This document shows positions 11,481 through 43,132 of a stretch of 46,215 nt of DNA, in pieces. Position 1 is the first letter of the stretch; each line of letters begins with the position of its first letter. The notes under the pieces were generated by a model. It was not told the origin of the DNA. It saw only the letters and a program-made list of their open reading frames with translations, and made no database searches. The stretch is from Rozella allomycis CSF55 (taxonomy: Eukaryota): assembly GCA_000442015.1 (NCBI GenBank), contig KE560523.1:62001-108215 (forward strand). Reading direction: 5' to 3'. The translations under genes and the position numbers were made by a program.

Positions 11481-12455
11481 ATGTCTTTTGTTTTGCCTTT
11501 CTCATCATATCGTTCTCTGATTGCGGATATTAAATTTTCTCTAGCACCTTCTGAATCTTTTCTTAAAAAATATTCACAGTAAATTTTATTCTGCCCTATC
11601 AAAGTATAAATACGGGCACTCTGAATGCAATTTTTAGTCAACAATTGCGAGCACATGTCTTAAAAACATTTCATTTACACAAAAGGAAAAGTCACCAATA
11701 TTATAACTTGTAAAAAAATACATTTAATATCTATTATGATGCTCAAATAATACACATAAGGAATATATCGTTTCACTTGCCGAGAAGATACAGTTACCGC
11801 CATGCGTCTTAGCTCGATTAATACTAGCAACTCATATTGATATAACAGAAGAAGCATTAACAGAAAAAGCTAAAAAGAAAAAGGTGACAAACTGGCTGCG
11901 TGAAATGTCTAATTTTGAGCCATTGTGGCTAAAAGAACAGATAATGCATTGTCTAAATGTAGACAAAATGTTTTCTCCAGATGGAGATCTTATTCGATCA
12001 AATGTTGGAGAACTTGGAGAAAACATTCTAACGAACATTTTAGAACACAAAGGAATACCTTTTCATAGTACAATTATCAACATTTCATTCATTTAGCGGA
12101 AGATGAATTAAGAGAACTAAATTTTCACAAAACTCCAGATGTTAGACTAGAAATTCCTATTGGTATGTATTTAATTTTAGACTAATAAAGCTGTAAAAGG
12201 CAGAATTGTACATTGGATTGAGAGTAAAGCACTGTTCGGTGACTATTATCATCATAAGAAATACGATGAAGCACAATACTCTAGTTATTACAACAGGTAT
12301 TTCACGTCAATTTAGAAATAAGCAGATATGGTCCAGGTTTAGTGATTTATTGGGCAGGTTACATTAAGGAGCTGGAAGAGTGCCAAGATTTCCTTGTCCT
12401 TCACGACTTTCCGCGAGACGAAGATATTGAAGTGATTAAATCACCTTTTCTATAA
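11481..12455 (+). CDS. CDIN1: CDAN1-interacting nuclease 1-like (C15orf41/TPD, PD-(D/E)XK fold)
   Basis: TLNAIFSQQ N-terminal region; KTPDVRL..WIESKALFGD..QYSSYYNRYGPGLVIYW; 5 introns, intron 2 (11710-11738) appears to be GT-TG. Confidence 0.85.
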
Positions 12456-17947: not shown

Positions 17948-19030
17948 ATGCAAATGATTTACCCTCCAAAATTTCTACAAAGGTGTTTCCGAAATTCGGT
18001 TATGCCTTTAGACAAAATATCGAATGTTTTCGATATAAGTACATTCTTGACACATGAAACAAAAGCGACTCTAGAGAAGGCTTTTGAGAATGTAAAAGCA
18101 CAGAGAAAGGAAACTATGAAACTTGATTTTTTAATCAAAGTGTTACACGAGTTTTGCAAAGAAAATCCGGTAATCATATCAACATATAAACCAAAGCAAT
18201 TATTTAAAGTTGAAGAGCTTTTGAAACTTTATAGAGTTTCAAGATATGTTGATGANAAACTTTATAGAGTTTCGAGATATGTTGATGAAAAATCATTTAT
18301 GGGCATTGACACAATTGAATTAAATAGTGAAATTACGAAATTAGAGAATGAAATAAACGATAAGCAAATAGTTTCTAGAATATTGGCGCCTGCCATTGAA
18401 GAAAAGATCTTCGAAATAGCCTCCGCTTTAACGAATTTTGTATATGGTGATAACGAAGGGAGTAATGCTGGTATAATTTTATTTGCAATCTGTATAGAAT
18501 TAAGTTGGCAATTTTATGACATTCTAAAGTATGTAGAAGGAAAACAACGATCAATTAAAGAACTGTCTGAAGCTCAAATTGTTAACTCACATGAAATTCA
18601 AGTGTTAATAATTAAAACTTTTGATTTAATTGAATCTCTGATAGAAAACGTTTGTGAGTTGCTTCATGAAATAAAGGGTGTACACTGCATTGAAGTAAAC
18701 GCCTCTTTTAATCAACATTATTGTTCAGTTTTGCAAAATATTCACCTTAAACTCGAGTAATGAATTGCTTTAAGATTTATATCAAGATGCTTAAAATACG
18801 AAGCGCTTTTACAGGTTTACGATGAGCCTACTGTTCAAGCACTGCGGACGATTAGAGAGACATATCAAATGGAGCTAATAAGTGTACAAGAAAAATTGAA
18901 CTCAATAGAACATGAGCTAGACCAATATAAGATTCTCGGTGATGAATTCATAAGCCTCAGTACACGTTACAAGTCGGTCTTGGATCAAATAGCGATAATA
19001 CAGGACGATTTAAGTCGATTATCCGTATAG
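17948..19030 (+). CDS. Augmin/HAUS subunit 4-like coiled-coil protein
   Basis: Spliced C-terminus LKLECLKYEALLQVYDEPTVQALRTIR..LDQYKILGDEFISLSTRY resembles the HAUS4 C-terminus; 5' end uncertain; assembly duplication at N 18256. Confidence 0.6.
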
Positions 19031-29746: not shown

Positions 29747-30786
29747 TCATTTATTTTCAACATTATAGTCGTAAAATCCTCTGCCAGTCTTCTTCCCTAA
29801 CCATCCAGCCTCAACATATTGGACCAACAAAGGACAAGGTCTATATTTGGGATCACCTAACTGAGAGTGAAGGACCTTGCATATAGCAAGGCAAGTATCC
29901 AGTCCGACAAAGTCCGCCAAGGTAAGGGGGCCCATAGGAACATTAGTGCCCGATTTCATTGTGGTATCAATGTCTTCTTTTGTTGCGATTCCCTAAATTG
30001 AATCTCAAAGAATTTTACTTCGTACAACGCGAAAATAGCTTCATTAATATAGGGAATCAAAATCCTATTGGCAATGAATCCGGGAATATCTTTGGAGACT
30101 GTTGTCACTTTTCCCATTTTCTTGGCGATCTCTATAGTTTTATTGAGTGTTTCCTTGGAAGTACCCAAACCAGGTATAANAGAAGTACCCAAGCCAGGTA
30201 TAACTTCGACAAGTTTCATAACCGGGACATTCATTTAGTTAATTCTGTTATTACCTGGATTCATAAAGTGCATTCCAATAACTTTTTCAGGTCTTTTTGT
30301 GACGGAAGATATCTTTGTAATGCTTATTGATGAAGTGTTTGATGCTAAGATGCAGTTTTTATCTGTTATAGAATCTAGTGTCTTGAAAATGTTTTGCTTC
30401 AATTCAGTGTTTTCACTTACAGCCTATTACATGCGATTAAAATATATACTTCAATGATCATTTCGCAATCAGAAAGATCGCCAATGGTGTTCACAATTTT
30501 CCTTCTTGAGCGTATTTCATTCACCTCATCAACCCTTAGTTTACCCTTTTCAACATTCTTATTTAACAATTTGTCTATTCAAATTAAATAAAATAATTAC
30601 CCATAAATAAACATTGTTGATTGAGTTGCTGAGGATTTGCATCAAAAATTGACACTTGGAGCTTTGCATTTGCTAGAGCTACTTGGGCTATTCCTATGCC
30701 CATTTGACCAGCACCGACAATACCAAGTTTATGGATCTTTAACTATTCACATTAAAGTTAATTACAAAGCGCTTTTGGGTAAACAT
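29747..30786 (-). CDS. 3-hydroxybutyryl/3-hydroxyacyl-CoA dehydrogenase
   Basis: [44 protein letters not shown] (needs GT-TG intron 30228-30254), [31 protein letters not shown]. Confidence 0.95.
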
Positions 30787-30874: not shown

Positions 30875-30947
30875 GGCTAGTTGGCGCAACTGGTAGCGCA
30901 ATCGACTCCAGATCGATAGGTTACAAGTTCGAGTCTTGTACTGGTCA
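30875..30947 (+). tRNA. tRNA-Trp (CCA)
   Basis: Cloverleaf: GGCTAGT/ACTGGTC acceptor stem, GCGC D-arm with TGG, ATCGA-CTCCAGA-TCGAT anticodon arm, GTTCGAGT T-loop. Confidence 0.95.
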
Positions 30948-31210: not shown

Positions 31211-34200
31211 ATGACCGTCACCCAAGATGATCTCGAAAAAGAATTATTCCCTGGTGTGAATTCTACGTATGGCACGAAAAATGAATATTTAATATGGTCA
31301 TCTACTGTTGTCGAAGATAATTCATCAATCGTAGGAGCAATGTTGATTTTATGAATAGACAGCGGAAACAAATCCTTTTGAGGCTACCAAATATAAAAGA
31401 AATTTATGTTTAACAAGTAATAATAACATATTAGTTTTTTAGCTATTAAAGAAACCAACACTATGAAGCTAAATAAAGTGAAACAATTGTCTGACAAGAC
31501 GTTGACAATTATGAAGTCTTGGAAAATAGATGAGTTGAAAGGAATCACTTTGTTACAGGTAATTGTTTAAATAATATTTAATAGTCCAACAAGATTTCGT
31601 TTGAATTTAACAAGCCAAGCGTGTTTTACACAGAAAGTTATGAGCAAACAATTAATATAATATTTACGTTCATTACAGTATTAAAATCATTAAAAGTTTT
31701 ATAAAGACTTTTCAGAATTACATGAAAAATACAAAGTTAGTTTTGAACAACATCACCGAAAAGGAAGTGATTGACATTGTAAAACAAAACGCCAAAGAAA
31801 AGGCGGGATCGAAGATTATTAAAGAAGAATCTAAAGAGATTAATAATTATTCCAAAGAAGAAGATAAGTTTGACATTCAAAAATTATTTGAATCCTTTAA
31901 TTGGGAGGTTAATGATCCAGCAGAATTAGAAGACATCCTTGAGAGTGAACTGAAAGCTTTAGAAGCTGCAAATGTTTACGCATTACTTGAAGGTGAGAGA
32001 AAAAATAAAGAAATAATGTCACACATTGATTCTGGCTTGGTAGAAATGGACACTATTGACTCCATGCTTAACACTTATGCTACACAGCTAAATGTAAGGC
32101 GAAATTATTAAAATTAAAAGTTAATTTCTGAAGAAATACAGCAAATAGAAACGTTGAATAAAGGACTTCAAATTCATATTGCTAATCAGCAAAAATTGGA
32201 CATGGTCTTGGATGACTTTTTGGTATAAATTAAATTTATATATTAAGAGTTAAAACTTTACATACCTGACGACATTCTTACTTCTTTGGAAAACGAATCG
32301 TTGGAAACCGATCAAGGGATCTTAAATTTAGAAGAAACGACGATCGTTCTACGTGACACGTTGAATACCACATTTGCTTCAGGTAACTAATGATGACCCA
32401 AATAATAGGACTCCAAGGTCTTGCAGCAGTCACAGAGCGCATGGAATTGTACAGAACATCTGCATTTCAATTCAGCAACAGATTGTTCGATTGTCTGAAG
32501 CGCCACATAAAAACATTAATTGATCAAGCGATGCAAGAGAAAAGGTTTTCCAAAAAGGGTCAGTTAAGAATGTTAGCTCATGATTTTGCATACGAGAAAT
32601 TTTCGAAATATCGCCGCCTGATTCTATGGCTAAGGGATATTGAACCGCGCAGACATTTAGATTTGCAAGTTGTAAAAATAAATCAAAAATTATTATCAAA
32701 GTTATATCAGAGTGAATTTAACACGCTTTACAAAAAAGAAGTACGCGATTTGTTGGAAGCATTACGTGTTTATCATTTGAGCAAAAGAGAAGATGACGAA
32801 GCATGTAAAATGCAATATTTCCTTTGATAGTTTTTTCAACAAATTCTCAACTTTTGACATTACCTTCACTGCCTTTTACTGGAACTAAAGGGATATTTGG
32901 ATCTATGAGTGCGCTAAGAAGTTCAACGCATTCTAAAGGAAGTAAGAAGCTGGAATTCAAATTCCTTCAACTCTGACCTTGGAGTTGAGAAGCCAATCGA
33001 AATTGGTCCCGAAGATAAAGTTCCACTCGACATAGTAATATCAATATTTGTCATTTAAAAGGCTCTAAAACTTGTTTTCAATTGTATTTTTCCAATTATT
33101 TTAAAGGAGAGAAACTTTTGCATCAATTTATTTCATGCGGAATCTGATAATAACATTGCGATTAGGAATGAAGAATTAAAGAGTATTAAGGTATCTAAAA
33201 GGGTGAATTCTCTGCTTGAAGGATTGTTCGAAGGAACCAAAGCAGATATTGATTCGTTTATTGATTCTTGTTTAAAAATAGATAACACGTAATTTGAATT
33301 ATTTGTGATATTTTAGATTTTGTATTTCAATGCTAGTTGAAGTTGAAAATGAAATCAAAAAGGAAAAAGGAGTCGATTTAATTACCGAAATTTTGGAATC
33401 TATAAAAGCTAAATTGATTTCTTCATATGATAAATTTTTGGATGAGCAAGTTTCTGCTATTGAAAATGTAAAGTTTGATGCAAAGAAGCGTTCTGGAATT
33501 CTCCACACTATAAGGGTGTTTCCATTATATGTTGATAGAATGGAGAGTATATTGGGCAAATCAAATGAATCAAGCAGAGAATTAGTTAATAAATCTTATG
33601 AACGTTTTGGCAAAGCCATTTTTGTACACTTGGAAGCAGTTGTCAAATCGATTGATTCATTTGAGGAGAAGGAACAATTAAATATACACATACTCAATAT
33701 TGGTAATTCTCTTATTCATAATTAATAGAAAATCATCATCATTTATTTACAAGATTAAGAGCATCTTCAAAGGCATATTCAATTGAGAAATTCGTTAAAG
33801 ATTCCAAAGCAATTTATGACCAGCATTTGTCCATTTATTGCAAAACATTAATAAAAAAGAATATTGGAAAGCTAATTGTAATTAATTTGTTTCCAAGTTA
33901 TGGTAGGAATTCTTTGATGGAGTGAATGATGTTGTTCGTTTAAACAGTGCTGAAGAAGTCACATTTCATGTTAATTACAATAAAGCAAATGCCAAGAAAG
34001 TTATTTCTCAATATCCCTTAAAGGTAAGTGTTTATCAATTTCACCAATTAGGAATTTAAAAAGCTATTAGAAAATCTATACAAGAAAGTAGATAAACACT
34101 TTAGCGACGATGAAGGATTGATTCCTGTTGTATGGAGACATATTCAAGATGAACTGTTAACTAAATATAAAACCATGTCAGATCTCATTAGCAGGTGTTA

Positions 34201-41614: not shown

Positions 41615-43132
41615 TTATTTCTTCTGGAAATGTAACACAACAGGTTTCAGTGGCCTTGAAATACCAACCATTTGAGTTTCATTGGCACATTCAGCATCAA
41701 ATTTAATATCCCAATGAGACATTATTAAAGATGTGACCAACTTAATTTGTAACATGGCAAACTTCATTCCAGTGCATGGGTGTCTTCCCGCACCGAATCC
41801 TAAAAATGTCCCTCTGTGGCTTGCGGTTATTGAACCGATGCATTTTCCATTTTCAATGAAACGCTCAGGATTGAAAATATCTGGATTCTTGTTGATGTTT
41901 CCATCCAAGTGCACCAATCCATGAGATGTAAAAACTATAGAATTCTTCGGAATGATTATATTTTCATGTTCAAACAATGGAACTTCGGTATCTTCTTCTA
42001 CCAATCTGGGCGCGAAACCAAACGAATTCATTCTAATCGTTTCCAAAACACCTGCTTCTAAAAGAGGAGTATTGTCTATAATATTCAACGGGAGTTGCTC
42101 AACATTGGCCAAGTCATTATCTTTCAGATAATTTATTAATGGTTCTAATTCATTTTCAATTCTGACCTTCCACTCAGGATATTGAGAAAGATTAATCAAA
42201 TACAGAGAAATGACTACATATTGATTTGAAACTGCTGCGAAAATAACACTGTGGATCATTCCAAAGACGATATCATAATCTACCCTTTCTGTTTTGGCAT
42301 CCAAGCACTACGAATTATAGCTTCAATCATGTCATGTTCATCGTATTCAGGGCCATTCAATATGTCTTTATGTTNAAAACATACTCGCCAGCAATTTCGA
42401 CTATTAATTTCCTGAGAGCAAGGTACTTTTCAGCACGTTTTTGCTTCAAAGGGGGATACCAAGGGGCGACTAAATGAAGAGGCGATTCACGTACCATATT
42501 TTCTAAATCAGTTTCCCTCATCCATTTAATTAACTGCTCTACCCATTCATCATGATCTTTACATGTGTATCCACCAAAAACCTTTATCGCGATTCTAGAA
42601 ATCAGGTTGTAAAAAGTATCGAGTGTATCTTCCAAAGTACCTGAATCAAAGTTGGATTCTGCTGACTTGATAAACCTTTGAGCTTCTGGCACAATTATCT
42701 TGGCGGCATATCCCGCCAATTTTTCAGCTTTCATCATTTTAGTAACCAGATGAATAAAGTCAGCTTCTACCATATTGTTAATGGCCTCATGCCTTAGTTT
42801 TCCAAGCATCCAAATGAACCCTTTGGCTAAACTGAATGTTTTTGATGAATGAAAGAATTTGGTGCCAACCGGATTTTTCAAGACATAGAGATCGCGAAAG
42901 ATAAATGTTTTAAGAATGACGACATTGTGCGGTATTGAGCGAAGCTTTTCATTGAGTATTTGGTAGTAATCAAATCGTTTTTGGGTGATCATTTGTGGGA
43001 CGATATCTAGCCATATGTTAATTGTAGGAATTTTAGATGATTTCTTGTTATTNTAGGAATTTTAGATGATTTCTTGGTATTCAAATAAAGAAATGTGATA
43101 ACTGCTATTAAAAATAGTGTGACATATATCAT
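41615..43132 (-). CDS. Cytochrome P450 (CYP51/CYP7/39-like); frame broken near 42305-42375
   Basis: N-terminal TM anchor, ETIR, FNPERF, FGAGRHPCTG; Ns at 42375 and 43053. Confidence 0.85.

Follow-up and report, generated by a model that had tools for sequence, protein, structure and literature searches.

A 27-nt GT..TG interruption in the catalytic motif of a Rozella allomycis 3-hydroxyacyl-CoA dehydrogenase gene, possibly a heterozygous splice-acceptor variant

The window, a 46,215-nt stretch of DNA from Rozella allomycis CSF55, which belongs to the Rozellomycota, carries a dehydrogenase gene whose putative fourth intron ends in TG, and this TG is genuine in the DNA of at least one haplotype. 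The reading to which a probability of about one half is assigned is that the TG allele mis-splices and that other copies of the gene supply the enzyme, i.e., that the junction represents a heterozygous splice-acceptor variant and not an organism-wide property of splicing.

The dehydrogenase gene and its fourth intron

The DNA of the window is eukaryotic and nuclear, with ∼33% G+C and standard stop codons, and its genes are split by very short introns. A gene for a 3-hydroxyacyl/3-hydroxybutyryl-CoA dehydrogenase, itself with tiny introns, occupies the minus strand at 30786–29747; six exons and five introns are listed in Table 1 (an exon total of seven has also been given). Similarity to solved members of the family was found at E = 1.3e-15 for exon 4 and at E = 1.7e-10 to 3e-10 for exon 5. 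When the 27 nt of intron 4 are excised and a 24-nt assembly duplicate is omitted, the gene gives a full ATG-to-TGA frame of 295 codons, which is colinear with other fungal enzymes at 61–65% identity.

Table 1. Exons, introns and assembly artefact of the dehydrogenase gene (window positions).
Feature	Position	Strand	Basis or remark
Exon 1 with ATG	30766..30786	-	N-terminus same as in ROZALSC1DRAFT_22891
Intron 1, 23 nt, GT..AG	30743..30765	-	Junction MFTQKRF/LKIHK, shared with ROZALSC1DRAFT_22891
Exon 2, NAD-binding motif GAGQMG	30601..30742	-	Frame and homologue alignment
Intron 2, 26 nt, GT..AG	30575..30600	-	Junction search and homologue alignment
Exon 3	30450..30574	-	Frame and homologue alignment
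Intron 3, 26 nt, GT..AG	30424..30449	-	Junction search and homologue alignment
Exon 4, catalytic His, ends with first base of Val codon	30255..30423	-	6aa8_A match, E = 1.3e-15
Putative intron 4, 27 nt, GTAATA...AATG (GT..TG)	30228..30254	-	Sequence, PDB contiguity, X2 contig, comparison with 46 introns
Alternative intron 4, 51 nt, GT..AG	30204..30254	-	Sole canonical solution; drops 8 codons including Glu
Exon 5, begins (G)TC CCG = VPVMKLVE	30019..30227	-	1f0y_A alignment from residue 163
Assembly artefact within exon 5	30157..30180	.	23-nt overlap of contig ends and a single N
Intron 5, 26 nt, GT..AG	29993..30018	-	Junction search; colinear with homologues
Last exon with TGA stop	29747..29992	-	95% identity to ROZALSC1DRAFT_22891

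The minus strand at 30254–30228 reads AAT CCA G/GTAATAACAGAATTAACTAAATGAATG/TC CCG GTT ATG AAA, and the sequence and coordinates of the 27-nt interruption given in the original prediction were reproduced. The read-through into TAA described there was likewise seen, an 11-residue stretch of the unspliced frame being followed by the stop. Excision of the 27 nt fuses HFMNP with VPVMKLVE, gapless against solved structures. The exon 4 frame (30238–30423) aligns to residues 109–163 of 6aa8_A and 107–162 of 1f0y_A, and that of exon 5 starts from residue 163 in both chains; as exon 4 thus ends at 162–163 and exon 5 begins at 163, the removal leaves neither gap nor overlap. This contiguity on 6aa8_A and 1f0y_A bears out the claim that the 27-nt removal restores the His/Glu motif of 3-hydroxyacyl-CoA dehydrogenases. 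The His and Glu then correspond to residues 158 and 170 of human HAD (1f0y_A), in which the proton is taken by His158, anchored by Glu170 (PMC10988713). A His with Glu 12 residues later is present only when the 27 nt are removed, Glu being lost with the 51-nt intron. The His-x11-Glu motif is kept in 105 of the 120 best database homologues, and the 13-residue motif of the gene is found unchanged in 54 of the same 120, which makes it the commonest version. That the 27-nt excision, and no other, gives exact contiguity with homologues argues for a GT-TG intron that works as it stands, in which the exons would be joined at the TG, 27 nt beyond the donor, and the full-length His/Glu enzyme would be made. 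Judged from sequence, use of intron 4 in this way is possible and is entertained tentatively; its call from DNA and protein homology counts against it.

The only GT..AG pair found to link both frames, in a search within 90 nt, is 30254–30204 (51 nt), which ends at an in-frame AG 24 nt downstream of the TG. As had been predicted for the next AG, its use excises the eight residues VPVMKLVE, Glu included. It was also confirmed that the junction cannot be moved to a canonical pair: a slide of one base is all that is possible, and it gives GG..AT. A U12-type intron, for which the donor consensus is ATATCC-like, was rejected since the donor read from the sequence is not of this kind.

The best database match is ROZALSC1DRAFT_22891 (P0001) of Rozella allomycis CSF55, which bears both Pfam domains, PF02737 and PF00725. 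It matches the 27-nt model at 283 of 287 aligned residues, is 100% identical over exon 4 and shares the other four junctions; it represents the same gene. It differs from the 27-nt model in reading HFMNP/VIPGLG, which implies the 51-nt GT..AG intron and the absence of the eight residues with Glu; among the 120 listed homologues, no other full-length protein has a clean deletion at the motif. The only public model of the gene thus uses the in-frame AG 24 nt on, which argues for the heterozygous variant. In its last exon, ROZALSC1DRAFT_22891 agrees with the alternative alleles found among the reads; that it has the other last-exon allele and yet the 51-nt intron argues against the heterozygous variant, and hints that the assembly behind this model had no AG at the right place either. 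The lack of a canonical short solution in ROZALSC1DRAFT_22891 is likewise a point in favor of a working TG acceptor. No second R. allomycis protein over these exons, and none derived from a transcript, was found among the protein-database matches listed, and no contig of the RNA run X8 could be aligned.

Three homologues from other organisms look, close to this point, as though an intron had been retained or wrongly modelled. In P0084, the ORF runs into ...VPVMKLVE; P0111 has MNPG, unrelated residues and then PMMKLVE; and P0086 shows a break after PIMK. From these sequences, other eukaryotes may have an intron at or near the same position. When exon 4 was used to scan metagenome contigs, 80 loci were obtained, and every one of them continues through the site without an intron. 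No orthologous intron in which conservation of the TG and its flanks could be followed was found among these 80 loci, of which the five aligned (L001–L004 and L006) are single unbroken matches with a full-length identity of only 52–58%; the aligned loci look bacterial.

Comparison with the other introns of the window

For a census of introns, well-scoring reading frames were chained on both strands and a GT..AG solution was sought for each junction. Forty-six other strong ORF junctions in the window were found to be GTA..AG introns of 25–32 nt, and intron 4 of the dehydrogenase was the sole strong junction with a GTA donor and without an AG (1 of 47). The introns of the set begin with GTA, usually as GTAAT, GTAAA or GTAAG, and have a length mode of 26–29 nt and a mean A+T content of 77%. 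With 27 nt, 78% A+T, a start in GTAAT (the commonest pentamer, 15/46) and a branch-like TTAAC 11 nt before its end, intron 4 is otherwise typical of the set, which argues for a working TG. It departs from the set at the 3′ end, which is AG in 46/46 of the others and TG here.

That intron 4 is 1 of 47 junctions, which gives no hint that the acceptor rule is relaxed, weighs against a working TG, and the contrast of 46 GTA..AG introns with one TG argues for a heterozygous variant. Introns of the window end most often in AAAG (14/46), which a T-to-A change at position −2 of intron 4 would yield; that a single A-to-T change would suffice to derive the observed end from the commonest one also argues for the heterozygous variant. 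Against it, the 51-nt alternative intron falls outside the 25–32 nt range of the 46 introns.

Under looser thresholds, two further GTA..TG candidates were obtained on the minus strand. The candidate at 11678–11652 was dismissed as it sits at a probable start codon, and that at 32731–32708 as it is antisense to a plus-strand gene; the remaining flagged junctions without AG were traced to a start codon, to ORFs on the antisense strand or to genes lying next to each other. The original prediction had implied a series of GT-TG introns, and within the window, no other convincing case was found to join the one in the dehydrogenase. A GT..TG end is not a habit of this genome.

The 46 introns of 25–32 nt are strikingly short and uniform, being mostly of the form GTAA...(A/T)AG without a pyrimidine tract. 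A search of the literature, supplements aside, turned up nothing published on acceptor sites or tiny introns in Rozella.

The terminal base, haplotypes and selection on the gene

An assembly or sequencing artefact, with a true base at 30229 that gives AG, would account for the TG, and this is extremely unlikely. The scaffold is a draft, with a single-N join and its duplicated 23-nt overlap 48 nt away and three more such Ns in the window, and both DNA sequencing runs considered, X1 and X2, disagree with the window at 30465 at full depth; these points speak for an artefact. Against it stands a DNA contig from run X2, of a second study, which matches 30094–30272 with 0 mismatches at a depth of 245, omitting 24 letters at 30157–30180. 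Runs X1 and X2 come from different studies, and the support for TG comes from X2, the X1 contigs being without coverage of 30199–30242. Also against an artefact, no alternative letter at 30228–30229 was listed among the contig variants of X1 and X2, with X1 uncovered there and contigs being able to drop variants. The reads at the intron end, which the original prediction had named as the place to distinguish AG from TG, thus gave TG, through the X2 contig, for at least one haplotype. At 245, the depth of this contig is roughly one half of the totals nearby (407–545), as expected for one allele, and the exact match at about half depth argues for a heterozygous variant.

All four Ns of the window (18256, 30180, 42375 and 43053) are single-N scaffold joins. 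Those at 18256, 30180 and 43053 are bordered by a direct repeat (about 23 nt or longer) with one or two differences between its copies, and these repeat-flanked joins fit butted contig ends from different haplotypes; in the flanks inspected at 42375, there was no such repeat. At 30180, the copies of the 23-nt overlap differ at two sites, the X2 contig omits the 24 nt, and the join adds a false IPGLGTS repeat to the dehydrogenase. A long minus-strand ORF at 42360–43061 contains the joins at 42375 and 43053.

In both X1 and X2, paired contigs diverge at 3–6% of positions, and the minor contig accounts for about 35–40% of the depth in X1 and 42–54% in X2. The genome is non-haploid, with two haplotypes in the reads, and R. 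allomycis has been described as non-haploid, “triploid,” in the part of the published account consulted (PMC6784888). The paired contigs and this description argue for a heterozygous variant and, together with the human AG>TG mutants described below, put a defective allele at least on a par with a working GT-TG intron; we would expect allele-specific lesions to be far commoner in a heterozygous polyploid than GT-TG introns. At 30465, X1 and X2 read A at full depth where the window has G. At 30442 and 30481, X2 alone differs, also at full depth, and the change at 30481 would turn Gly86 into Asp. The choice of allele in intron 3 and exon 3 thus differs between the window and the runs X1 and X2.

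Contigs built from 31-letter words stop 30 letters past a heterozygous site. From the contig ends at 30272 and 30243, we infer a heterozygous site at 30242, within intron 4, and more variable sites between 30193 and 30242. The haplotype read at intron 4 is the TG one, contigs having been placed at an 85% likeness cut, and this reading from the TG haplotype alone argues against the heterozygous variant. Our guess is that the second haplotype was perhaps lost at intron 4 because the 24-nt artefact lowers its likeness below 85%. Exon-sized ORFs of the other allele, in which an AG would give MK- in place of MN- before VPVM, were sought among 119 protein-database hits, in which none from R. allomycis was found and the best identity was 67%. 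If all alleles carried TG, a working TG acceptor would become the better reading. It is unlikely that all genome copies carry TG and are constitutively ligated there, with the acceptor fixed by distance from the donor and branch point and not by AG; were this so, intron 4 would be the first known sole-acceptor GT-TG intron, and one within the catalytic motif of an enzyme that is under purifying selection.

The allelic coding differences comprise 15 synonymous and 4 non-synonymous changes, ten further differences being intronic. This ratio indicates purifying selection for most of the time since the alleles separated, which excludes an old dead allele; any lesion must be recent, and the ratio argues against the heterozygous variant unless it is recent. 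The eight codons that would be intronic with the 51-nt intron are intact, in frame and in the commonest version of the motif (54/120), which argues against the heterozygous variant as well. The intact state of these codons, in a gene under purifying selection, favors a working TG. A second unusual change was seen at codon 229 (29948–29950, minus strand), in a D-x2-M-x-L-G motif, where the window has Ser and 117 of 119 homologues, as well as ROZALSC1DRAFT_22891, have Leu; no alternative letter at these positions was listed in the DNA contigs. Ser229, which may lie on the TG allele, argues for the heterozygous variant.

The lost acceptor and the Ser in place of a near-invariant Leu would also fit a gene that is decaying in all copies, its enzyme being no longer needed, as would the reduced metabolism of Rozella allomycis, an obligate intracellular parasite. 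Such a pseudogene is nevertheless very unlikely, given the complete 295-codon frame obtained with the 27-nt excision, the full-length identity of 61–65% to other fungal enzymes, the allelic differences of 15 synonymous to 4 non-synonymous, and the canonical state of the other four introns.

Known TG acceptors and the predicted fate of the transcript

GT-TG introns, although rare, have been documented, and the Rozella case is a single instance and not a new splicing rule. Among 2.3 million annotated splice-site combinations from 130 fungal genome sequences, 98.7% were GT-AG (PMC7072748). Of about 92,000 introns with RNA support in Ganoderma lingzhi, 22 were GT-TG (PMC11590231), a rare class there, with which the Rozella junction shares its GT..TG ends and its place in a fungal nuclear gene. 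The existence of these RNA-supported introns in a fungus supports a working TG acceptor, and their frequency, about 0.02% of introns where measured, counts against it. The Ganoderma calls come from transcripts, whereas the Rozella call comes from protein homology, and the introns of Rozella are far shorter (25–32 nt).

In the sections consulted of the human survey of Szafranski et al. (2007; PMC2374985), 36 genes were found to use a TG acceptor, always with an AG within 28 nt and in no case as the only acceptor; GNAS and TSPYL2 are among the genes named (PMC4176328). The Rozella junction resembles these TG-AG tandems (GNAS and 35 others) in its U2-type GT donor, its TG end and its close AG, and the TG-AG gap of 24 nt lies inside the 28-nt limit, which is in favor of a working TG. 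In the human tandems, the TG is an alternative acceptor only, as shown by RT-PCR, whereas the Rozella TG would be the productive site and is known from DNA alone. The Rozella intron also differs from the human tandems in that its AG isoform deletes a catalytic residue and in that it is of 27 nt and without a polypyrimidine tract. Were the TG used, the acceptor might be set by branch-point distance, or the site might act as a TG-AG tandem in which the AG aids early recognition, and the 51-nt isoform may be co-produced. It would follow from such use that a minimal-intron spliceosome can ligate productively at a non-AG acceptor, and the gene would offer a simple natural substrate for second-step site choice in very short introns.

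Human AG>TG acceptor mutants described in the same sections of that survey activated nearby AGs, and the TG was not used (PMC2374985). This behavior, together with the finding that the human TG is never a sole acceptor, weighs against a working TG in Rozella; the switch to neighbouring AGs argues for a heterozygous variant and makes a defective allele at least as likely. The human disease alleles are likewise single changes at −2 in an otherwise normal acceptor with a nearby activatable AG. They are proven loss-of-function alleles with known transcripts, whereas in Rozella the transcript outcome is a prediction and the carrier is a non-haploid fungus.

The heterozygous variant would stem from the replacement of a single A by T at position −2 of the acceptor in one of the alleles, giving ...GAATG/ in place of ...GAAAG/. 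The spliceosome would most likely be unable to complete exon ligation at the TG efficiently, and would instead turn to the first AG beyond the branch region, which lies 24 nt inside the exon, or leave the intron in place. Use of this AG would give an in-frame mRNA without VPVMKLVE, in which the Glu anchoring the catalytic His is gone and whose product is predicted to be inactive. The enzyme would be supplied by the other genome copy or copies, and the allele would thereby be tolerated. If the TG is unused, the junction would mark a loss-of-function allele of an ordinary kind, heterozygous in a parasite that is polyploid, and its value would lie in annotation: the only public model of the gene omits the residue that anchors the catalytic His, and the assembly around the dehydrogenase gene has haplotype-join artefacts.

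Stop-codon reassignment was rejected on the basis of long ORFs (e.g., one of 337 aa) without TAA or TAG and of a tRNA-Trp with anticodon CCA. The tRNA-Trp(CCA) gene, the sole tRNA gene found in the window, is located at 30875–30947 on the plus strand, upstream of the dehydrogenase gene, 89 nt from its start codon and on the opposite strand. Its depth in the DNA contigs is 5–15 times that of its surroundings, and run X6 matched the window nowhere else, so that this gene is probably present in several copies or conserved.
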